From a virus (Duplodnaviria; Heunggongvirae; Uroviricota; Caudoviricetes), in the IMG/VR virus record IMGVR_UViG_2693429676_000015: a stretch of DNA of 10,702 nt. One strand, written 5' to 3'. Position numbers and translations under genes: made by a program. Shown here in pieces: positions 163 through 10,702 of the stretch (positions within the stretch are counted from its first letter, which is position 1; each line of letters begins with the position of its first letter). The notes under the pieces were generated by a model. It saw only the letters and a list, made by a program, of their open reading frames with translations, was not told the DNA's origin and did not search any database.

Positions 163-540
163 TCAAATCCCCAGTGAAGTCACCATTGTCCTGAGAACTT
201 GCAGAACGTCATGATCATAACTTCCATCCAAACCGCGACGGCGAATTGCTTCTCGTATTACCGGAAGCAGTTCGCTGGAAATCTCGGTGCATATTTCACC
301 TGATAATACGCTTGGCTCAAGTGAGAATATTGGTGAACTTACGGTCTTGGTCTCGACAGTTTCAGAGTCAGTGCCAACATTATAAAGCTCAACGAAAGCG
401 GTCTTGATTTTCCGGGCCAGATCTTTTGCTGGCTCGCTTGCAATATCTTTCCCGATTTCTCGCAGCACAGAATGCAATGTATGAGCTGCTGTTTTCTGTA
501 CATCAGACGGTAAATCTTTAAATTCCATCGTCAGCCTCAT
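163..540 (-). CDS. Hypothetical early-left prophage protein (125 aa; 121 aa if it starts at the second ATG, MEFKDLP...)
   Basis: Intact six-frame ORF. Its first ATG overlaps the stop of the upstream small gene (TGATG on the minus strand), suggesting coupling; a GAGG lies 7 nt before the second ATG. No recognisable motif. Confidence 0.5.
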   Translation of the reverse strand: MRLTMEFKDLPSDVQKTAAHTLHSVLREIGKDIASEPAKDLARKIKTAFVELYNVGTDSETVETKTVSSPIFSLEPSVLSGEICTEISSELLPVIREAIRRRGLDGSYDHDVLQVLRTMVTSLGI

Positions 541-692
541 CAGTCAGTGTTTCTGGCTAACCAGCAACGCGCGCCAGATTCGGTTTTAAACGTTTTGCTT
601 TTGGTATACGTCATGGCGGTAAACGTTCCATCCTGGTTAGGGAACACGCCGCACACCAGAGATTCGTTGTTGCCAAGATCGATAGTATCCAT
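540..692 (-). CDS. Small early-left prophage protein (about 50 aa, MDTIDLGNNESLV...); possibly YdaF-like
   Basis: Internal ATG at 692-690 is preceded by a good Shine-Dalgarno (aaggggaaatGAGGtcagcATG on the minus strand). The longer 68-aa ORF from 746 has no RBS. Position (first gene of the leftward operon next to the operators) fits a lambdoid early-left gene. Family is a guess. Confidence 0.45.
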   Translation of the reverse strand: MDTIDLGNNESLVCGVFPNQDGTFTAMTYTKSKTFKTESGARCWLARNTD

Positions 693-859
693 GCTGACCT
701 CATTTCCCCTTAACGCCGGGGTGGCGGAACAAAAAACCTGCTGCATAGTTAAAGATTGAACCCTGCCGTCATGTTCTTACGCCTCGGGCTGGCTACTTAA
801 CCCCTGACCACTGTCTGGTAACTCGAAGTATTGCCCTGCATTCTGTGGGGCGGGGTGGG

Positions 860-930
860 TTGACGCCTGAAACAATAGCATCATTATTTTTTTTTGATGT
901 AAATAGCATCGCTATTGTTTTTTGTTGGGG
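860..930. promoter_or_regulatory. OL-like operator/promoter region with two repressor-site candidates (874-888 AATAGCATCATTATT; 902-916 AATAGCATCGCTATT)
   Basis: Two 15-bp sites of form AATAGC-N3-GCTATT (902-916 is a perfect 6+3+6 palindrome), 28 bp centre to centre. The same motif recurs in the repressor/cro intergenic region at 2013-2027 and 2038-2052. A TTGACG (861-866) and T-rich tracts are nearby. Promoter elements are not confidently placed. Confidence 0.5.
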
Positions 931-956
931 CAAGAAAAAACCACCCTAAGGTGGTT
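925..956 (-). terminator. Rho-independent terminator for the leftward repressor-antitoxin-toxin transcript
   Basis: Stem AACCACC (939-945) and GGTGGTT (950-956) with loop CTAA. On the minus strand the hairpin is followed by TTTTTTCTTG. It lies 17 bp downstream of the toxin stop at 973. Confidence 0.5.
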
Positions 957-972
957 CTGTCGGCGGGAATAA

Positions 973-1263
973 TTAACTGTTTTTGCCTGGATACTGTCTT
1001 CGAGAATGCACAATATTTACTACTTCTATGCTTGATGCTGTTACTCGGTAAAGGATGATGTAGTTAGGATGAGTTACAATTTCACGAAGACCAAGAACTC
1101 GCTCGCTTGGAGGATACAGGTAAGGATGCTCTGTGAGCGGCAAAACGGATGTTTCAATTCGAATTTTCATTCTGCGTGCTGCCGCGGGATTTTCTTTAGC
1201 TATGTAGGCTACGATCTGGCGCAAATCATCACGAGCAGATGGTAGCCATAAAACGGGTAACAT
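973..1263 (-). CDS. parE: ParE/RelE-family type II toxin (96 aa)
   Basis: Size and N-terminal sequence (MLPVLWLPSARDDLRQIVAYIAKENPAAA...) are typical of ParE/RelE toxins. Start ATG overlaps the stop of the upstream antitoxin ORF by 1 nt (TAATG). Follows a repressor-antitoxin pair as in paaR-paaA-parE modules. Confidence 0.75.
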   Translation of the reverse strand: MLPVLWLPSARDDLRQIVAYIAKENPAAARRMKIRIETSVLPLTEHPYLYPPSERVLGLREIVTHPNYIILYRVTASSIEVVNIVHSRRQYPGKNS

Positions 1264-1457
1264 TATTCACCTCTGTGAGTTGCAGCAGCAATTTGGGCAA
1301 TAATTTGTTCCATTTCCGCCATTACCTCATCATGCGGAATCGCCGGGCGGGGATCCGCGAGGCTTGCTGCTACTTTGGCCCGCAGCCATTCGTTGTAACT
1401 ATTTTCTTGCTCAACTGTCTCAAATTCTGAAACCATTGGGGAAAGGACTGTACTCAT
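1263..1457 (-). CDS. paaA: PaaA-like antitoxin (64 aa), partner of ParE
   Basis: Small acidic protein (MSTVLSPMVSEFETVEQENSYNEWLRAKVAASLADPRPAIPHDEV...) that strongly recalls the PaaA2 antitoxin of E. coli O157:H7 (from memory). A GAGGAG lies 8 nt upstream of the ATG, and it is translationally coupled to the toxin. Confidence 0.65.
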   Translation of the reverse strand: MSTVLSPMVSEFETVEQENSYNEWLRAKVAASLADPRPAIPHDEVMAEMEQIIAQIAAATHRGE

Positions 1458-1476
1458 TTTACATATCTCCTCTGAT

Positions 1477-1977
1477 TTAGGCGCGACGGCCTTTTTGTGC
1501 AGCTAACCACCGCGCAACCGTACGATCCATTGATTCTTTTTTATCTTTCATCTCCTGAAGCATGTGTTCTTGATCTTCTTTCGGAAAAGCTCTGAACGTA
1601 TGGATTAAATCTCGTTCCATCGGCTCTACGGCAAACGGTAGTTCATCCTCTGTTTGTTCTGTGTCTGCTGGTAATGCGACTATGTTATCTTGCTGTGGTT
1701 CTCGACAATACATCCTTGCAATTTGCAGCAAATCTACCATGTCTGGCCTGATTGACTCAGGGGGAACTTTCAGTAAGCCAGCAAACTTTAGAACAGCCTC
1801 AAGGTTTAGTGGGGTTTGACCATTTAGGTAGTGACTTACCGCCCCTTGTGTTGAAAACCCCATAATTTCCGCCGCACGTTCCTGAGTCAATCCCAACTGA
1901 GATTTCTTTGCCATCCAGATTTCTTTCAGTCTTCTGGCGGCGTTGAGGTCGGTGTCTGACAATGATTTTCTTTTCAT
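1477..1977 (-). CDS. paaR: CI-like/PaaR-like HTH (XRE-family) repressor, 166 aa from ATG at 1977 (the ORF track extends to a GTG at 2007)
   Basis: N-terminal HTH (LTQERAAEIMGFSTQGAVSHYLNGQTPLNLEAVLKFAGLLKV). Divergent from a Cro-like gene across an operator-bearing intergenic region. First gene of a three-gene operon with the antitoxin and toxin. No S24 peptidase motif is evident in the C-terminus. Confidence 0.75.
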   Translation of the reverse strand: MKRKSLSDTDLNAARRLKEIWMAKKSQLGLTQERAAEIMGFSTQGAVSHYLNGQTPLNLEAVLKFAGLLKVPPESIRPDMVDLLQIARMYCREPQQDNIVALPADTEQTEDELPFAVEPMERDLIHTFRAFPKEDQEHMLQEMKDKKESMDRTVARWLAAQKGRRA

Positions 1978-2088
1978 ACATCCAATTCTAATAAGATTGC
2001 TAATCACTTTGAAATAGCATCACTATTTACTTTTAAAAATAACAGTGCTATTAATTATGCATTGGTAACACATCACATAGGGCGGATT
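1978..2088. promoter_or_regulatory. OR-like divergent promoter/operator region between the repressor and the cro-like gene
   Basis: AT-rich 111-bp intergenic region with two copies of the OL motif: 2013-2027 AATAGCATCACTATT and 2038-2052 AATAACAGTGCTATT, 25 bp centre to centre. Confidence 0.55.
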
Positions 2089-2352
2089 ATGAATCTTGGA
2101 GAATATTTGCATCATTTTCATATAACCCAGAGTTCATTTGCTGAGATTGTTGGCGCATCCCAAGGGATGGTCAGCCACGTTATAACGGGGCGTGCAAAAC
2201 TTACAGGAGAAAAAATATTACGTTGGTGTGAAGCAACGGGATGGGTGGTGACCCCACATGAGATTGACAGTAAAACCTACCCCAACCCAACTGACGGCTT
2301 GCCTGCTGAGTTTCAGGCTAACACACAACCATCGGCGGGGGTTGATTCATGA
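2089..2352 (+). CDS. Cro/YdaS-like small HTH regulator (87 aa from ATG 2089; the ORF track starts at a TTG at 2062)
   Basis: HTH segment (QSSFAEIVGASQGMVSHVITGRAKLTGEKILRWCEATG). AGGG Shine-Dalgarno 7 nt upstream of the ATG. Divergent to the repressor. Its stop overlaps the next gene's start (ATGA at 2349-2352). Confidence 0.65.
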   Translation: MNLGEYLHHFHITQSSFAEIVGASQGMVSHVITGRAKLTGEKILRWCEATGWVVTPHEIDSKTYPNPTDGLPAEFQANTQPSAGVDS

Positions 2353-2774
2353 AAATCAAGCATGAACACATCCGCATGGCGATGAAAGCCTGGGCGCATC
2401 CGGACGGTGAAAAAGTTCCGGCAGCTGAAATAACCAGGGTTTATTTCGAACTGGGAATGACGTTTCCGGTTCTGCATAACGACAGCAAGCACAACACGCT
2501 TTATCTCAACACCCAAAAGATTTTCCGTTGGCTGGATAAAGACACCCCTGACGCTGTTGAAAAAATTCAGGCGTTGTTACCTGCGATCGAAAGGGCAATG
2601 CCACCTCCGCTGGTGGCTCGAATGCGCAGCCACAGTTCAGCTTATTTTCGGGAACTGGTGGAGACGCATGAACGACTGGTGAGAGACGCTGATGATTTTG
2701 TCGCAGTGGCAATCGCCGGTTTCAATCAGATGAACCGTGGTGGCCCGGCAGGAAATGCTGTGGCAGTACATTGA
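2349..2774 (+). CDS. YdaT-like protein (141 aa), possible CII-like regulator of the Rac-type immunity module
   Basis: Starts MKIKHEHI..., which I recall as the N-terminus of Rac-prophage YdaT; the length (about 140 aa) and position directly after the Cro/YdaS-like gene also match. Translationally coupled to the upstream gene. Confidence 0.6.
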   Translation: MKIKHEHIRMAMKAWAHPDGEKVPAAEITRVYFELGMTFPVLHNDSKHNTLYLNTQKIFRWLDKDTPDAVEKIQALLPAIERAMPPPLVARMRSHSSAYFRELVETHERLVRDADDFVAVAIAGFNQMNRGGPAGNAVAVH

Positions 2775-5410: not shown

Positions 5411-5425
5411 TTGCCGGGGGCGCTT

Positions 5426-5636
5426 ATGGCAAAAGTATTTACACAGGAAGAGCGGGAAAAAATTAAGGGGCAGGTTGTTGAACTCGTACGCCAGAGTGGG
5501 CGCGAGACGTTACGACAACTGGAAGCTAAAACCGGGGCGACAAGATATTTAATAAGCGTTCTCGCCAGAGAGCTGGTTGCCAGTGGGGATGTATACAACT
5601 CTGGCTACGGGTTATTCCCGTCTGAACAGGCTCGTA
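5426..5636 (+). pseudogene. 5' portion of a phage gene (MAKVFTQEEREKIKGQVVELVRQSG...), interrupted at the N at 5637
   Basis: ATG at 5426 with a G-rich Shine-Dalgarno. Positions 5446-5636 are identical to 6577-6767 (copy 3). After the N at 5637 the sequence switches to the antisense of an IS3-family orfA. Confidence 0.4.
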
Positions 5637-5637
5637 N

Positions 5638-5993
5638 TTTTTCAGCGACTCCTGTGCAAAATACGCTGTTGCTTTTTTTAATATATCTCGCTCAAGGCGA
5701 GCTTCATTTAACGCCTTACGCAGTTGCAGAATTTCAGATTCCAGTTCAGCCACCGTGCGGGAACCAGGAGTACCGAGCCCTTTTCTGGCGGCGGTAACCC
5801 ATTGTCCTAAAGTGCCTTCAGGAAGAGATAATCGGGAAGCGCCTTCACTGATCGAAAGTTGATTTTCAGGAACCGTTCTGACAGCTTCGGCTTTGAACTC
5901 TTTAGAGTAACGTTGGGTTTTTCTGCTCATTATTAGCTCCTTCTGATGCCATTCTATTTCAGGAAGGAGTGTCCGTTAAACTCAGGCTACCTC
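5638..5993 (-). mobile_element. IS3-family insertion sequence fragment (left end plus N-terminal part of orfA; IS600-like from memory)
   Basis: Minus-strand ORF MSRKTQRYSKEFKAEAVRTVPENQLSISEGASRLSLPEGTLGQWVTAARKGLG...LERDILKKATAYFAQESLK is a typical IS3-family OrfA (HTH plus leucine zipper). The element end reads TGAGGTAGCC... on the minus strand near 5993. It is truncated at the N at 5637. Confidence 0.7.
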
Positions 5994-6384
5994 AAAAATT
6001 AAAGGGCAGGTTGTTGAACTTGTACGTCTGAGCGGTCGCGAGACGTTGCGGCAACTGGAAGCCAAGACAGGTGCGACAAGATATCTGATGAGTGTTCTCG
6101 CCAGAGAGCTGGTTGCCAGTGGCGATGTATACAACTCTGGTTACGGGTTATTCCCGTCTGAACAGGCGCGTAAGGACTGGCAAAACGCCCGCAAAAAACT
6201 CTCAAGGGCAAATCTGAAGAAACCATCTGTGGTTGATCCTGACCTTATCTGGTCATTACCAGACGGAGAAATACGCCGCTACGACAGGCGTCAAAACATA
6301 ATCTGTAGCGAGTGCCGGAAGAGCGAAGCTATGCAGCGTGTACTGGCTTTCTATCAGGGTAATTTTCAGAAGGTGCTGTTGTGA
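5994..6384 (+). pseudogene. 5'-truncated divergent paralogue of the same phage gene (copy 2), preceded by the IS3-family end
   Basis: Aligns to copy 1 and copy 3 from ...KIKGQVVEL to the stop, with scattered nucleotide differences (roughly 5-8% by eye) and a few amino-acid changes. No start codon, because the IS end abuts it. Confidence 0.5.
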
Positions 6385-6456: not shown

Positions 6457-6571
6457 GGTGATGCTGCCAACTTACTGATTTAGTGTATGATGGTGTTTTT
6501 GAGGTGCTCCAGTGGCTTCTGTTTCTATCAGCTGTCCCTCCTGTTCAGCTACTGACGGGGTGGTGCGTAAC
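6457..6571 (+). mobile_element. insA: IS1 left-end fragment (inverted repeat plus the first 20 codons of insA), truncated by the N run
   Basis: ggtgatgctgccaacttactgatttagtgtatgatgg... and the encoded MASVSISCPSCSATDGVVRN match the IS1 left end and InsA N-terminus as I recall them. The sequence stops at NNNNN (6572-6576). Confidence 0.8.
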
Positions 6572-6576
6572 NNNNN
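6572..6576. other. Run of 5 N (assembly gap or scaffold join); a single N also occurs at 5637
   Basis: Literal n characters in the sequence. Confidence 0.95.
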
Positions 6577-6979
6577 GGAAGAGCGGGAAAAAATTAAGGG
6601 GCAGGTTGTTGAACTCGTACGCCAGAGTGGGCGCGAGACGTTACGACAACTGGAAGCTAAAACCGGGGCGACAAGATATTTAATAAGCGTTCTCGCCAGA
6701 GAGCTGGTTGCCAGTGGGGATGTATACAACTCTGGCTACGGGTTATTCCCGTCTGAACAGGCTCGTAAGGACTGGCAAAACGCCCGCAAAAAACTCTCGA
6801 GGGCAAAGCTGAAGAAACCATCTGTGGTTGATCCGGACCTTATCTGGTCATTACCAGACGGAGAAATACGCCGCTACGACAGACATCAGAACATAATCTG
6901 TCGCGAGTGCCGGAAGAGTGAAGTTATGCAGCGTGTACCGGCTTTCTATCAGGGTGATTTTCAGGAGGCGGTACTGTGA
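6577..6979 (+). CDS. 3' portion (copy 3) of the phage gene seen at 5426; with copy 1 it would encode a protein of about 140 aa with a winged-helix-like segment and a CxxC motif
   Basis: Positions 6577-6767 are identical to 5446-5636. Reading frame is open to the TGA at 6977-6979. The ORF-track product 6512..6979 is a chimera with the InsA N-terminus across the N run. Confidence 0.5.
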
Positions 6980-7036
6980 GTGAAATTAGCTATCAGGCTT
7001 CAATTACCGCTGGCATTCGCATCAAAGGAGAGGAGC

Positions 7037-7393
7037 ATGGAAATAAAACCAGAAGATGAGTTAAGCAATATTGTTTTATTTCCGGTAAAAGAGGATAACC
7101 CTCGTAATCAGGTTAATTTTCTTTATGAGCCATCGGAAAGACCATATTGCCATCACGCCTCTGTCCGGGTTGACGAAAAAGAGCGTCAGGTCCGCTGTAA
7201 AATTTGCGGTGCAGTTGTGGAGCCATTTGACTGGATGCTCTCTGTGGCGAAAAGAGAAACCAGACTGGCAGATGATGTAAGGCTCTTGCGCCAGGAGGAG
7301 CGGGAAAGGCGAAAAAATATAGAAAAGCTAATCCAGATTGAGCGTAATGCGAAAGCGCGGATACGCAGGGTGACAAAATATAGCCCCGAATAA
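7037..7393 (+). CDS. Hypothetical zinc-ribbon / coiled-coil protein (118 aa from ATG 7037)
   Basis: AGGAGAGGAG Shine-Dalgarno immediately upstream of the ATG at 7037 (the ORF track starts at a GTG at 6980). Cys/His cluster PYCHHASVRV...CKICGAVVEP, then a basic heptad-like C-terminus (RLLRQEERERRKNIEKLIQIERNAKARIRR). Confidence 0.55.
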   Translation: MEIKPEDELSNIVLFPVKEDNPRNQVNFLYEPSERPYCHHASVRVDEKERQVRCKICGAVVEPFDWMLSVAKRETRLADDVRLLRQEERERRKNIEKLIQIERNAKARIRRVTKYSPE

Positions 7394-7607: not shown

Positions 7608-9440
7608 ATGGCCCGCATGTTTGATACATTAGGATTTTACATTATGAATGTGCAACATTTTGATTTTTTTACAGATAATGAGTTTTCTAATCTGGAAAGA
7701 TATCAAACTTGTAAAGCCATGGCCAAAGGTTATGCGGGCAATTACAAAACCGGGCAGTCAAGGTTGATGCATGCCCGCTCATACTGCTTCAGCATCGTAG
7801 CTGCATATTGGGATACCCTTGCAAAAAAGCAAAAAAGCAGCATTAAAATGAGGGCAGTACCGCACACTGTTTACATAGAAGACATTCCATGTGATGCACG
7901 CGAGCTCGCTGAACGAACAGGTGAGCTTATTGCTCAATTTCCGGCGGAGGACGCTGGATATCTGATTGGGTCAATTTATACGGTAATGCTGCCATCCGCT
8001 TACCGTTCGGAATTGGGGGCTTACTATACCCCCCCACCTTTGGTAGCGCGTCTCTTGGACCTGGCTGAAAAGTCTGGTGTTGATTTTTCTCATGCATCGG
8101 TTATTGATCCTGCGTGTGGTGGCGGTGCATTTTTGGCACCAGTAGCCATTCGAATGTTAAAAAAAGACAAGGGGTCTTCCCCTGAATGGATGTTGAGGAG
8201 AATCAGTCGTCGTTTAAAGGGGATAGAAATCGATCCATTTGCGGCTTGGATGAGTTTGGTATTGCTCGAATCTGTACTAATGCCACTATGTGTAAAGGTA
8301 AAACGTAGATTGCCTGAAGATACAATTATTGTTGCTGATGCGCTTCAGCAAGATAAATTTTCTGGTTATGATCTTGTGGTAGGGAATCCGCCTTACGGAC
8401 GTGTCACTCTCGATATTAAAACGAGAGAAAAATATTCTCGTTCGTTATTTGGTCATGCAAATCTATATGGATTGTTCACCGACTTAGCTGTTCGCATGGT
8501 TAAAGAGAAAACAGGAGTTATTGCATTTCTTACGCCAACTTCTTTTCTTGGTGGGCAGTATTTCACCGCGCTGCGAACCCTTTTGACCGAAAAAACTACT
8601 CCGTATGCCCTTGATTTCGTCACTGACAGGGATGGGGTCTTTGACGATGTTCTCCAGGAAACAATGTTGACAGCATTCAAGGCGGGAGAACATAAAGTTC
8701 GGGCCCAGGTATCCTCACTTGTCCCTAAGGGGTTGAACAAAGCAAAAATTGAGAAAATAGGTAATGTTGATATAGAAAAAGGTGGAGCAACGTGGCTTTT
8801 GCCACGCGTTAAAGATGATGCCTGTTTTCTTAATGTATTAAAACAGATGTCTACGCGTTTAGCTGATCTGGGATACTCAGTCTCTACAGGTCAGTTAGTC
8901 TGGAATCGATTTAAGTCGCAGTTGCGTACGACGAAAGGAAAAAATAGCTACCCATTAGTCTGGGCGGAATCAATAACTTCAGCTGGTTTTCGTTTTAGTG
9001 CAGACAGAAAAAATCATGTTCCCTATATCGATATAACCCCACAACAGGGTTTCCTTGTGACAAAATCTGAATGTGTGCTTGTTCAGCGGACAACATCGAA
9101 GGAACAGGACAGAAGGATTTTAGCGGCAATTTTACCTCAGGGATTTATAGATGAAACTGGTGGCGTAGTAGTTGAAAACCATATTAATATTGTATATTCA
9201 AACGGATTGTTCTCTGCGGTTCGCCCTGATGTTATTGATATGCTACTTAATTCGCATGTTGTCGATCGGGCGTTCAGGTGTATAAGCGGAAGTGTTGCTG
9301 TTTCGGCCTATGAATTGAATTCAATCCCGTTGCCTTCTCTGGAGCAGGTGATGGAGATTCAATCGTTAATTGATGCTGGCGTCCACAGACGGATTATTGA
9401 GAGAACTATCGCTGGTTTCTATGGAGTGATGATTGCATGA
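7608..9440 (+). CDS. N6-adenine DNA methyltransferase, gamma-class (Eco57I/TaqI-like motif order), 610 aa; start could instead be the ATG at 7643
   Basis: Motif X GAYYTPPPLV (aa 137-146, nt about 8016-8045), motif I IDPACGGGAFL (aa 166-176), motif IV VVGNPPYG (aa 257-264, NPPY at nt 8386-8397), then about 340 aa of C-terminal, presumably target-recognition, sequence. Confidence 0.85.
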   Translation: MARMFDTLGFYIMNVQHFDFFTDNEFSNLERYQTCKAMAKGYAGNYKTGQSRLMHARSYCFSIVAAYWDTLAKKQKSSIKMRAVPHTVYIEDIPCDARELAERTGELIAQFPAEDAGYLIGSIYTVMLPSAYRSELGAYYTPPPLVARLLDLAEKSGVDFSHASVIDPACGGGAFLAPVAIRMLKKDKGSSPEWMLRRISRRLKGIEIDPFAAWMSLVLLESVLMPLCVKVKRRLPEDTIIVADALQQDKFSGYDLVVGNPPYGRVTLDIKTREKYSRSLFGHANLYGLFTDLAVRMVKEKTGVIAFLTPTSFLGGQYFTALRTLLTEKTTPYALDFVTDRDGVFDDVLQETMLTAFKAGEHKVRAQVSSLVPKGLNKAKIEKIGNVDIEKGGATWLLPRVKDDACFLNVLKQMSTRLADLGYSVSTGQLVWNRFKSQLRTTKGKNSYPLVWAESITSAGFRFSADRKNHVPYIDITPQQGFLVTKSECVLVQRTTSKEQDRRILAAILPQGFIDETGGVVVENHINIVYSNGLFSAVRPDVIDMLLNSHVVDRAFRCISGSVAVSAYELNSIPLPSLEQVMEIQSLIDAGVHRRIIERTIAGFYGVMIA

Positions 9441-10519
9441 ATCTGCCTGTTGTTCCCCCATTGAATGTTATCCGGGAAAGATTACAATTAATTTTCCCTG
9501 AAGGGACTGAGAATCGTGGATATTTAATTCGGGAAATAGCTGCAAAAACAATTTTTGTCATGTTTTATGCTGGTGCGGTTGAGGGGCTGGGGCGATGGAT
9601 AAGGCCCAGCCAGGTTGTAAGTATGGGAGATTCGCAGGCTGCTCTTACTGATGATGCGTCCAGAGAAAGCTGGGTAAAGATGACTTTCTCTAAACAAAAG
9701 ATAAGGCCTGCTGATGCATGGTATGCGGAAAATACGCGTGAGCCAATACGTGATGAAACTATAAAAAATGGCCTAATACCTTGCAATGCAATTGTTGAGC
9801 GTAAAGGTATACCCACCACATCCTCTCGTCCTCGTTACAGTTTGAATCGCTCTTTTGCAGCACTCTTTGATGCCGGGCTTGAAGGAGATTCGCTGCTGAG
9901 TGCAATAAGTTCCTGGCAAGAAAATCATTTGAACAAAGCCGCTCTTGCTAGGTTGCGTTTATTGAAATCAGGGGCAGTGATTGCTGCTGATGCCGTAGTC
10001 GTCACTTTCCCAAATGGAGAGAAGAGAACTTTAGCTCCGGGCCCGTCAAGTACAATAGCTAAGGCCGTCATCGAAGTTTTTGCTCCTAATTTTCTTAAGA
10101 ATCCAACTGTGCTCTGGTTGTCTGAATCCGGGAATAAAGTTGTTGCTCAGGATGATGTATTGGCAAAAGCATTGGGGCTGAATATTGATGCCTCAAAAGC
10201 ACTTCCAGATATTATTTTGATTGATTTGGGAGAGGACCGAACGGGTTCGGACATGCTTGTAGTTTTCACTGAAGTAGTTGCGACAGATGGGCCTATAAAC
10301 AGGGAACGAAAAGTTACTCTCACTCATTTGGCTATTGACGCTGGGTTCAGCGAGAAAAATCTTGCATTCCTTACGGCATTTATGGACAGAAGTGCTCTGC
10401 CTTTTAAAAAGGCAATACCAGAATTGGCGTGGGGATCTTATGCATGGTTTGCTTCTGAACCGGAGCACTTAATTGATCTTCGGGATGGTTATCCGGTAAA
10501 GATCAGCCAGAGAAAATGA
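9437..10519 (+). CDS. Putative restriction endonuclease partner of the methyltransferase (360 aa); BsuBI/PstI-like family is a tentative guess
   Basis: Start ATG overlaps the methyltransferase stop (ATGA at 9437-9440), indicating translational coupling. No methyltransferase motifs. Size and context fit a Type II REase. The N-terminal segment (VIRERLQLIFPEGTENRGYLIREIAAKTIFVMFYAGA) resembles what I recall of BsuBI/PstI-family N-termini. There is a possible acidic cluster at LIDLGED...FTEVV. Not verified. Confidence 0.5.
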   Translation: MNLPVVPPLNVIRERLQLIFPEGTENRGYLIREIAAKTIFVMFYAGAVEGLGRWIRPSQVVSMGDSQAALTDDASRESWVKMTFSKQKIRPADAWYAENTREPIRDETIKNGLIPCNAIVERKGIPTTSSRPRYSLNRSFAALFDAGLEGDSLLSAISSWQENHLNKAALARLRLLKSGAVIAADAVVVTFPNGEKRTLAPGPSSTIAKAVIEVFAPNFLKNPTVLWLSESGNKVVAQDDVLAKALGLNIDASKALPDIILIDLGEDRTGSDMLVVFTEVVATDGPINRERKVTLTHLAIDAGFSEKNLAFLTAFMDRSALPFKKAIPELAWGSYAWFASEPEHLIDLRDGYPVKISQRK

Positions 10520-10671: not shown

Positions 10672-10702
10672 GGTGATGCTGCCAACTTACTGATTTAGTG
10701 TA
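10672..10702 (+). mobile_element. IS1 left terminus (first 31 bp); the element continues beyond the window
   Basis: ggtgatgctgccaacttactgatttagtgta is identical to the start of the internal IS1 fragment at 6457 and to the IS1 left inverted repeat as I recall it. Same orientation as the IS1 end at 1-30. Confidence 0.8.

Follow-up and report, generated by a model that had tools for sequence, protein, structure and literature searches.

The window (the whole stretch of 10,702 nucleotides analysed here) contains the immunity region (repressor and Cro) of a lambda-like prophage that has decayed. A 166-aa protein encoded there very probably acts as CI-type immunity repressor, with a PaaA-ParE toxin-antitoxin pair carried on the same transcript in the slot of rexAB and rendering the immunity region addictive. 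The arrangement and the dual role of the repressor are already known from prophage CP-933P; new here is the immunity specificity. The genes concerned and their terminator are:

1477-1977, minus strand: repressor gene, 166 aa (open reading frame 1477-2007, ATG at 1977; Pfam HTH_3, E = 8e-9)
1263-1457, minus strand: paaA, 64-aa antitoxin (PF21217 PaaA2, E = 3e-23)
973-1263, minus strand: parE, 96-aa ParE-family toxin (PF05016 ParE_toxin, E = 1.8e-17)
932-958, minus strand: intrinsic terminator of the repressor-paaA-parE operon (9-bp stem, 4-nt loop, U tract)

Open reading frames, Pfam matches and coordinates agree with the preliminary description of three leftward genes for repressor, antitoxin and toxin, and the start of the 166-aa repressor is the one annotated in RefSeq for a 99%-identical E. 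coli locus. The details of the layout proposed there hold as well. The RBS-linked gap between the first two genes reads ...cTAAatcagaGGAGatatgtaaaATG on the minus strand and comprises 19 nt with a GGAG Shine-Dalgarno site, and the junction of the last two (gaaTAATGtta) contains the 1-nt stop/start overlap TAATG, with the antitoxin directly upstream of the toxin. At the end of the operon the hairpin AGAACCACC-UUAG-GGUGGUUUU, followed by a U tract (958-932), begins 15 nt past the parE stop. This terminator was absent from the list of a simple terminator scan and was confirmed by folding (dG -15.1 kcal/mol, z -2.7, minus strand); it is kept with an altered loop in L001 and L012, two of the relative loci used for comparison (L001-L023). 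Repressor, paaA and parE lie on the same strand with the repressor first, scan and folding place no terminator before the end of parE, and the assignment to one operon is supported by this layout. The proposed alignment to PaaA2 and ParE2 reveals close homologues of the crystallised proteins: ParE is 67% identical to ParE2 over 92 aa (PDB 5cw7) and 86% identical to a CP-933M-like copy of O157:H7 (L005), in both cases full length and gap-free, and PaaA is 75% identical to PaaA2 (PDB 3zbe/5cw7) and 77% to the L005 copy. A Pfam search with the 64 residues of PaaA found no DNA-binding or other domain besides PaaA2.

What kind of protein is the repressor? It consists of a lambda-CI-like N-terminal helix-turn-helix domain (residues 1-92), a disordered acidic linker (93-118) and a PaaR-type C-terminal helical domain (119-166). 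The AlphaFold model (mean pLDDT 79) has helices across residues 8-91 and 119-165, the C-terminus being modelled as two helices (119-165). The N-terminal domain matches that of lambda CI (1lmb) in phmmer with an E-value of 3e-9 and 39% identity, and the model matches the same domain in Foldseek with TM 0.82-0.93, an rmsd of 1-2 Å and 37-40% identity. In the sequence alignment the acidic positions aligned with lambda E34 and D38 are kept; in lambda CI these two residues have a role in PRM activation. Alignment with PaaR1/PaaR2-type proteins is limited to the C-terminal 44-64 residues (52-56% identity), and the DNA-binding domain is of another type than in PaaR1/PaaR2, namely the lambda-CI type. 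The earlier designation as PaaR-like thus applies to the last 44-64 residues but not to the DNA-binding domain. PaaR2 was reported to have no sequence similarity to CI; since the DNA-binding domain here is recognisably lambda-CI-like, the PaaR family is tied to the lambda repressor by homology, beyond analogy. A Pfam search found no Peptidase_S24 domain in the repressor, and PaaR2 is likewise reported to be devoid of a RecA-stimulated autocleavage domain (PMC8630535). As the C-terminal helical domain takes the place of the RecA-cleavable CI domain, induction would not occur by autocleavage. A PDB sequence search with the repressor returned lambda CI N-terminal domain entries only and no PaaR2 structure, so that the AlphaFold model is the single source for the C-terminal fold. 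Octamerisation was reported for PaaR2 (PMC8630535), and by analogy the C-terminal domain of the repressor is assumed to oligomerise.

The control sites around these genes are the following:

2038-2052, no strand: OR1-like operator, palindrome overlapping the -10 of PR
2013-2027, no strand: OR2-like operator, abutting the PRM -35 and overlapping the PR -35
1990-2004, no strand: weak OR3-like site, AATAAGATTGCTAAT, 3 mismatches, in the PRM spacer and touching the -10; read from the sequence
874-916, no strand: OL, two operator palindromes (874-888 and 902-916)
1985-2013, minus strand: PRM-like promoter, TTCAAA-17-TAGAAT (promoter scan)
2026-2054, plus strand: PR-like promoter, TTTACT-17-TATTAA; read from the sequence, conserved in relatives
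872-903, minus strand: PL-like promoter, -35 TTTACA (903-898), -10 TATTGT (877-872)

A search for AATAGC-N3-GCTATT with at most two mismatches found five sites, as compared to 0.38 expected, and none of 200 shuffles reached five. They are the two OL palindromes, the OR1- and OR2-like operators and one unrelated site, which confirms the four operator-like palindromes described earlier next to the divergent Cro-like gene and where the leftward early operon begins. The 111-bp intergenic region between repressor and Cro thus holds two operators and a weak third, with PRM and PR hexamers overlapping the sites. The OR1- and OR2-like sites are 25 bp apart from centre to centre, as in the relatives. 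The OR3-like site, for which the evidence is weaker than for the others, is 23 bp away from OR2, and relatives carry the related sequences ATTAGTAAAACTATT or ATTAATAATCTTATT at its position. At OL the two palindromes overlap the PL hexamers TTTACA and TATTGT. OL-equivalent pairs are found downstream of the cargo in L001 and L008-L014 and a single site in L006 and L007. The -10 of PRM ends 7 nt ahead of the A of the repressor ATG and in all relatives a TA[GA]AAT -10 sits 6-7 nt before this ATG, a proximity that implies a leaderless repressor mRNA. PR is absent from the promoter scan because the scan rule demands a T at position 6 of the -10. PL, also absent from the scan, was read from the sequence and from the pattern TT[TG]AC[ATC]-N16-18-TATT[GT]T conserved in relatives. 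Since PR and PL were recognised by eye and by conservation, the evidence for them is weaker. Due to a run of nine A at 887-895 the PL spacer measures 20 nt here; the run varies from 6 to 9 across assemblies, the spacer is 19-20 bp in most Shigella-type assemblies, and with the spacer lengthened in this way PL may be inactive. A further promoter-like match lies inside the repressor gene (1890-1862), and the number of scan matches in the region equals chance expectation.

Divergently from the repressor, and beyond OL, lie:

2089-2352, plus strand: ydaS-like Cro analogue, 87 aa (HTH_3, E = 4e-4)
2349-2774, plus strand: ydaT, CII analogue, 141 aa (PF06254)
2342-2359, no strand: candidate YdaT operator (OM), TTGATTCATGAAAATCAA, TTGATTN6AATCAA, at the ydaS/ydaT junction
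540-746, minus strand: ydfA-like gene (DUF1391), first of the leftward early operon (PF07151, E = 3e-28)

The Cro-like protein is 61-87% identical to its counterparts in loci with the same repressor N-terminal domain and 36% identical to that of the PaaR1-type locus, and has no BLAST match in the PaaR2 locus; it has the recognition-helix motif QG-VSH in common with the repressor. YdaT matches the CP-933P YdaT structure 8bt1 (E = 3e-70) and is 81% identical to the YdaT of L005. The candidate YdaT operator is the sole perfect match within the window and lies where PRE is expected; motif and position were footprinted in the CP-933P system (PMC9986795). The ydfA-like gene is in the same place in L001, L005 and L012-L023, and the leftward early operon is cut by IS1 at positions 1-30 of the window, after two genes. 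A restriction-modification pair is also present in the window. The order of the genes, their location between OL/PL and OR, and the Cro/YdaT genes diverging from them fit a lambda immunity region with cI-rexAB swapped, as proposed in the preliminary description.

Is the protein then the repressor of the phage or that of its toxin-antitoxin operon? Megablast with the three genes retrieved 6 E. coli genomes only, while a search in distant mode found the family in 842 genomes, 72 of them with the full-length type. Every relative with this N-terminal domain has the same palindromes at OR and OL whatever cargo lies downstream, be it PaaA-ParE, HigBA, HipA-like genes or none; L006-L014, for example, combine the same motif at OR/OL and the same N-terminal domain with different cargo or C-terminal architecture. 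PaaR1- and PaaR2-type loci lack these palindromes; at OR as well as at OL the PaaR1-type locus carries a motif of its own, ACAATAAAAAACTGT. Cro co-varies with the N-terminal domain of the repressor. Loci with dual-HTH repressors were checked for additional PaaR1-type operators and none carried them. That N-terminal domain, Cro and operators are inherited together regardless of cargo argues for a phage repressor in the first place, with the toxin-antitoxin pair as cargo in the rex slot, and so supports the earlier suggestion that the repressor doubles as phage repressor. The question is no longer open, as PaaR2 of CP-933P was already demonstrated by experiment to be the phage repressor (PMC8630535).

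The same comparison bears on the notion that the HTH protein is a dedicated regulator of the toxin-antitoxin operon only (a split antitoxin) and that immunity comes from another gene. PaaR was reportedly first described, by Hallez in 2010, as third component of a toxin-antitoxin system, which favours this notion, and as the prophage is a remnant its immunity is not directly visible. Nevertheless, the same N-terminal domain, Cro and operators occur with HigBA, HipA-like or no cargo, operators are also found where the leftward early operon starts, the gene is in the cI position and faces the Cro/YdaT/replication operon, its N-terminal domain has the identity to lambda CI given above, and the region offers no other repressor candidate, which makes a mere operon regulator quite improbable. 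It is also unlikely that PaaA-ParE is mainly a RexAB-like cargo for anti-phage exclusion or abortive infection rather than an addiction module. The slot after phage repressors is generally known to hold exclusion genes commonly, other toxin systems fill it in relatives and a restriction-modification pair shares the window; yet no PADLOC defence model matches toxin, antitoxin or repressor, and experiments on the sister system have yielded a single phenotype, the stabilisation of plasmids through post-segregational killing. The pair could also serve both roles, exclusion and addiction.

IS1 ends flank the remnant, its left operon breaks off after the second gene and the PL spacer is lengthened, as if the locus were the inert relic of a dead prophage with genes intact by chance and inactive today. 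However, all five genes compared are full length and under purifying selection, with dN/dS of 0.05-0.18 versus relatives (0.05 for parE) at dS near saturation. The identical repressor recurs in a great many assemblies (6004 index blocks), within the IS1-truncated remnant and in a lineage where genes are known to decay, and all regulatory sites are intact, so that an inert relic is very unlikely. Fixation of the allele in Shigella sonnei is probable, its carrier there being a prophage remnant truncated by IS1.

How would a CI-type repressor with addictive cargo work? The frame is provided by the genes with their homologies, by the sites and by the joint inheritance of N-terminal domain, Cro and operators, and experiments on CP-933P suggest by analogy how DNA binding and repression, leaderless translation, and toxicity with addiction would look. 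The lambda-CI-like N-terminal domain would bind AATAGC-N3-GCTATT at OR (two strong sites, one weak) and OL (two sites), and the bound repressor would shut PR (ydaS/cro, ydaT/cII, replication genes) and PL (ydfA onward). From OR2, beside the PRM -35, it probably also activates transcription of its own leaderless mRNA, and the short C-terminal helical domain common to PaaR1/PaaR2 may provide oligomerisation. Occupying the slot of lambda rexAB, paaA and parE would be transcribed together with the repressor gene, both from PRM and from a PRE activated by YdaT. PaaA is predicted to neutralise ParE by direct binding, with no DNA-binding role. Upon loss of the region labile PaaA would decay and ParE would poison the cell, which would make the immunity region addictive.

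It is conceivable, if somewhat short of an even chance, that lambdoid prophages of this group generally follow a modular design of repressor-coupled toxin cargo, in which a block of C-terminal domain and slot recombines with at least 3-4 immunity-specificity cassettes (DNA-binding domain, operators, Cro) and the slot toxins (PaaA-ParE, HigBA, HipA-like) are interchangeable. If so, heteroimmune recombinants that keep the toxin-antitoxin pair would be common, a point relevant to the proposal in the literature that the pair protects the immunity region from being replaced through recombination, and it would be explained why the IS-riddled Shigella-type remnant retains exactly this region. A collection of sequenced phages contained none with this allele; phage Evi has the PaaR2 type. 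The 166-aa variant did not turn up in literature searches. The locus leaves current understanding unchanged and adds a natural variant, predicted to be heteroimmune, to the single characterised PaaR system. Its clean, simple operators suit tests of the short helical domain that replaces the C-terminal domain of CI, and, being apparently fixed in what is probably Shigella sonnei, the locus lends itself to studying whether a toxin-antitoxin cargo keeps prophage remnants from being deleted.

The three-component systems mentioned earlier for O157:H7 prophages are found in the literature for CP-933P and in the second, CP-933M-like copy. For CP-933P PaaR2 was established as CI analogue, YdaS as Cro analogue and YdaT as CII analogue, with PL/OL (Jurenas et al. 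2021, PMC8630535; role of PaaR2 restated in PMC9986795). In this system PR and PL are repressed, PRM is activated at low dose and PRE is activated by YdaT, paaR2 is leaderless, and bistability, addiction and plasmid stabilisation were reported, with no ParE2 activity in either transcriptional state (PMC8630535); a physiological role of ParE2 in CP-933P beyond stabilisation is unproven. The locus resembles paaR2-paaA2-parE2 of the cryptic prophage CP-933P/Sp12 (E. coli O157:H7) in gene order, spacing and position between PL/OL and OR, in the identical YdaT operator motif at the ydaS/ydaT junction, in a repressor C-terminal domain of 52% identity that is not accompanied by an S24 autocleavage domain, and in a promoter geometry implying leaderless repressor mRNA. 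Unlike in the 123-aa PaaR2 type, the DNA-binding domain is of lambda-CI type and unrelated in sequence, and the operators are AATAGC-N3-GCTATT, 2-3 per side, instead of 18-bp repeats with half-site GTTTAGTAA (PMC8630535). As DNA-binding domain, Cro and operators differ, the two systems are expected to be heteroimmune. L005 has the closest toxin-antitoxin pair and shares the ydfA-like flank and the layout, whereas its repressor has 133 aa and another HTH type, matching over the last 64 residues only (56%), its operators are ACAATAAAAAACTGT and its Cro is 36% identical. Judged by genomic position and a published statement placing a homologue on CP-933M, L005 presumably is the published paaR1-paaA1-parE1 locus. 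With cI-rexA-rexB of lambda the locus has in common a homologous N-terminal domain, a tripartite OR with 23-25 bp spacing in which OR2 adjoins the PRM -35, operators repeated at PL, an implied leaderless repressor mRNA and a predicted co-transcribed cargo downstream of the repressor, closed by a terminator. It differs from lambda in the repressor C-terminal domain, a helical module of about 45 aa versus an S24-type cleavable dimerisation domain, in YdaS/YdaT, which are not homologous to lambda Cro/CII, and in the cargo of the slot, a toxin-antitoxin pair versus RexAB.

The three leftward open reading frames that the preliminary description took for an HTH repressor, a 64-aa antitoxin and a ParE toxin are confirmed by ORF calls and Pfam domains alike, and the repressor gene is divergent, as had been stated, from a Cro-like gene, the rightward YdaS-like HTH gene:

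973-1263, minus strand: toxin gene parE (96 aa; Pfam ParE_toxin, E 1.8e-17)
1263-1457, minus strand: antitoxin gene paaA (64 aa; Pfam PaaA2, E 3e-23)
1477-2007, minus strand: repressor open reading frame (166 aa from the ATG at 1977; HTH_3 domain)
958-932, minus strand: hairpin and U tract (terminator; 9-bp GC-rich stem, 15 nt past the toxin stop)
2089-2352, plus strand: gene for the YdaS-like HTH protein
2349-2774, plus strand: ydaT, encoding YdaT

RefSeq annotates the start at the equivalent of the ATG at 1977 in an E. coli locus of 99% identity. Reading of the minus strand also bears out the described RBS-linked gap and stop/start overlap, as after the repressor stop comes atcagaGGAGatatgtaaaATG, a gap of 19 nt to the antitoxin gene with a Shine-Dalgarno site, and the antitoxin stop overlaps the toxin start in TAATG. 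The proposed terminator was recovered by folding (-15.1 kcal/mol, z -2.7 versus shuffles) and was not among the results of a simple scan. When aligned to their suggested counterparts, the toxin matches the ParE2 crystal structure from E. coli O157:H7 (PDB 5cw7) end to end (E 7e-37, 67% identity) and the antitoxin matches PaaA2 (PDB 3zbe; E 1e-23, 75% identity). Closer still is the second O157:H7 copy, locus L005, taken for the homologue on CP-933M that PMC8630535 mentions (toxin 86%, antitoxin 77% identity). YdaT is 81% identical to the L005 copy and matches the crystal structure of YdaT from the O157:H7 prophage CP-933P (8bt1, E 3e-70). TTGATT-N6-AATCAA, the operator that YdaT protects in footprints with CP-933P (PMC9986795), has a single mismatch-free occurrence, at 2342-2359, where ydaS stops and ydaT starts, the same location as published.

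Operator-like palindromes had been noted at the repressor/Cro divergence and at the head of the leftward early operon. A search of the whole window for AATAGC-N3-GCTATT with at most two mismatches yielded five sites versus 0.38 expected (0 of 200 shuffles gave five) and puts two at each of these places:

874-888 and 902-916: predicted operator palindromes, OL side (pattern search)
2013-2027 and 2038-2052: predicted operator palindromes, OR side (strong pair, 25 bp centre to centre)
1990-2004: weak third candidate site at OR (3 mismatches), 23 bp beyond 2013-2027
2013-1985, minus strand: PRM-like promoter, TTCAAA-17-TAGAAT (promoter scan)
2026-2054, plus strand: PR-like promoter, TTTACT-17-TATTAA (read from the sequence), overlapping both strong sites

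The OR region lies between the ATGs of the repressor (1977) and ydaS (2089). The PRM-like -35 abuts the middle operator and the -10 ends 7 nt upstream of the A of the repressor ATG, leaving no space for a leader. The PR-like promoter was not given by the promoter scan, the rule of which excludes a -10 of TATTAA. Past the terminator, the palindromes at 874-888 and 902-916 overlap TTTACA and TATTGT facing a ydfA-like gene, together the putative PL/OL equivalent. The poly-A tract between PL -35 and -10 (minus strand 887-895) differs in length among the loci compared (the window and the relative loci L001 and L016-L023), from A6 in E. coli RMDEC465 through A7 in one complete genome and A8 in five to A9 in L016, L023 and the window. 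The PL spacer accordingly measures 17 to 20 bp, and the OL sites are spaced 25 to 28 bp apart. This variation could be a true slipped-strand change tuning or killing PL, or homopolymer sequencing error.

What kind of protein is the repressor? The expected alignment to PaaR2 holds in part: to PaaR2 (123 aa, published start MQKKE) or the 133-aa PaaR1-type protein the last 44-64 residues match at 52-56% identity, and the rest does not align. Residues 1-90 form an N-terminal domain of the lambda CI kind (phmmer E 3e-9 to 1lmb). In the AlphaFold model (mean pLDDT 79) five helices at 8-91 are followed by a disordered acidic linker (93-118) and a helix-turn-long-helix (119-165), and by Foldseek the N-terminal domain superposes on structures of the lambda CI NTD (TM 0.82-0.93, rmsd 1-2 Å, 37-40% identity). 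In the phmmer alignment E33 and E37 are retained acidic positions opposite lambda E34 and D38, which form the positive-control patch contacting sigma-70 at PRM. Pfam finds no Peptidase_S24 domain in the repressor, and PaaR2 is likewise reported to lack one (PMC8630535). Judged by these alignments, the repressor is a chimera relative to PaaR1 and PaaR2. An alignment of 37 relatives delineates a modular family with a C-terminal domain common to all:

166 aa (repressor of the window): CI-like HTH and the common C-terminal domain
132-133 aa (PaaR1 type): the same C-terminal domain after a second HTH type
244-255 aa: both HTH domains in tandem and the C-terminal domain

PaaR2 carries a third type of DNA-binding domain on the same C-terminal domain. 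The tandem type, with the CI-like HTH and the PaaR1-like HTH before the common domain, is found in L008-L011 (proteins P0013-P0023, 244-255 aa), loci in which AATAGC-N3-GCTATT operators are present and the PaaR1-type operator ACAATAAAAAACTGT is absent. L003 (3977-5288) and L004 hold a two-regulator, four-gene operon of a 123-aa PaaR2-like protein, a 153-aa PaaR1-like HTH protein, paaA and parE.

That the regulator serves the toxin-antitoxin operon only is contradicted by the fetched loci encoding its relatives, in which the cassette is independent of the cargo. Every locus with a CI-like N-terminal domain has two palindromes, spaced 25 bp, upstream of its repressor gene, and the palindrome recurs immediately past whatever comes after this gene:

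L012-L014: PaaA-ParE; palindromes upstream of the repressor and downstream of the cargo
L008/L009: HipA_2/DUF3037 pair (HipA_2 kinase-like); OL-type operators after the cargo
L006/L007: HigB and HTH antitoxin; single site downstream (one source names this repressor as Salmonella enterica subsp. diarizonae)
L010/L011: no cargo; palindromes upstream and downstream of the repressor

The Cro-like protein, which has the recognition-helix motif QG-VSH in common with the repressor, is 61-87% identical in loci with the CI-like domain and 36% in the PaaR1-type locus, and has no detectable relative in the PaaR2 locus. AATAGC-N3-GCTATT is absent from the immunity regions of PaaR1- and PaaR2-type loci; the PaaR1-type locus has a different motif of its own, ACAATAAAAAACTGT, with two copies at each of OR and OL. 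In every relative the PRM -10 lies 6-7 nt from the repressor ATG. DNA-binding domain, Cro and operators thus co-vary and are inherited together as a single immunity cassette that does not depend on the toxin-antitoxin pair, and the 166-aa protein appears to behave like a phage repressor with a slot for cargo in its operon.

We favor, with good though not full confidence, a repressor that holds OR and OL with paaA-parE on the same transcript as addiction cargo. In the repressed state the 166-aa protein would sit on OR1/OR2 and OL, closing PR and PL, and sustain its own leaderless PRM transcript, which would carry paaA and parE as far as the terminator and could also be provided by YdaT from PRE. 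ParE would be bound and neutralised by PaaA, and loss of the region would remove the labile antitoxin and free the toxin; binding, toxicity and addiction are here proposed by analogy with the sister system, and the anatomy and co-inheritance are direct observations on the loci compared. An anti-phage role of PaaA-ParE, possible and able to coexist with addiction, is without support from PADLOC. An inert relic is contradicted by conservation; dN/dS is 0.05-0.18 for all five genes versus relatives, ratios that are rough as dS is near saturation.

The prophage itself is a remnant, given the IS1 ends at the window borders and the N-joined IS junctions. Positions 1-30 are an IS1 terminal repeat, and the other IS1 end at 10672-10702 is repeated at 6457-6487; in complete genomes of the window type the left side has an IS1 after two genes. 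A lone N (5637) and NNNNN (6572-6576) directly border a 191-bp perfect repeat (5446-5636 = 6577-6767), with an IS3-family orfA fragment (5526-5930, minus strand) and an IS1 InsA start (6512) between them. Patchwork scaffolding at IS copies, not a true triplication, is the probable origin of the three partial copies of DUF977 (5411-5797, 6046-6384, 6577-6979). They are followed by a 137-aa ORF (6980-7393, plus strand; weak zinc-ribbon match below the Pfam cut-off) and, at the right end of the remnant, by a complete restriction-modification pair overlapping by 4 nt:

7608-9440, plus strand: type II methyltransferase, Eco57I/N6-adenine type (610 aa; PADLOC MTase_II, E 2e-300)
9437-10519, plus strand: BsuBI/PstI-family endonuclease (360 aa)

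In the assembly collection the exact repressor sequence is recorded in 6004 index blocks, and Shigella sonnei is the name on the database clusters closest to it (99-100% identity). Among 5426 complete E. coli genomes, only 2 have the allele at 99% or more; the full-length 166-aa type is found in 72, at about 79% identity, and some related paaA-parE in 842. Escherichia phage Evi (L015, LR597642.1, 1684-2547) encodes paaR2, paaA2 and an unannotated ORF containing the full ParE2 sequence; as a deposited phage genome, it indicates that the PaaR2-type module is not limited to cryptic prophages.

Whether PaaR doubles as the phage repressor has already been answered in the literature (Jurenas et al., 2021; Prolic-Kalinsek et al.). 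In CP-933P, PaaR2, YdaS and YdaT function as analogues of CI, Cro and CII; paaR2 mRNA has no leader, both PaaR2 and YdaS protect the intergenic operators in footprints and repress PR and PL, PRM is activated by a low PaaR2 dose and PRE by YdaT, and the locus is bistable and stabilises a mini-F plasmid (PMC8630535). The dual role of immunity repressor and third toxin-antitoxin component is thus established for the sister system, and the cargo-independent cassette points to the same role here. No description of the 166-aa variant was found in the literature. What the window adds is a heteroimmune member: whereas PaaR2 is described as having no sequence similarity to lambda CI, the repressor of the window is a lambda CI homologue.
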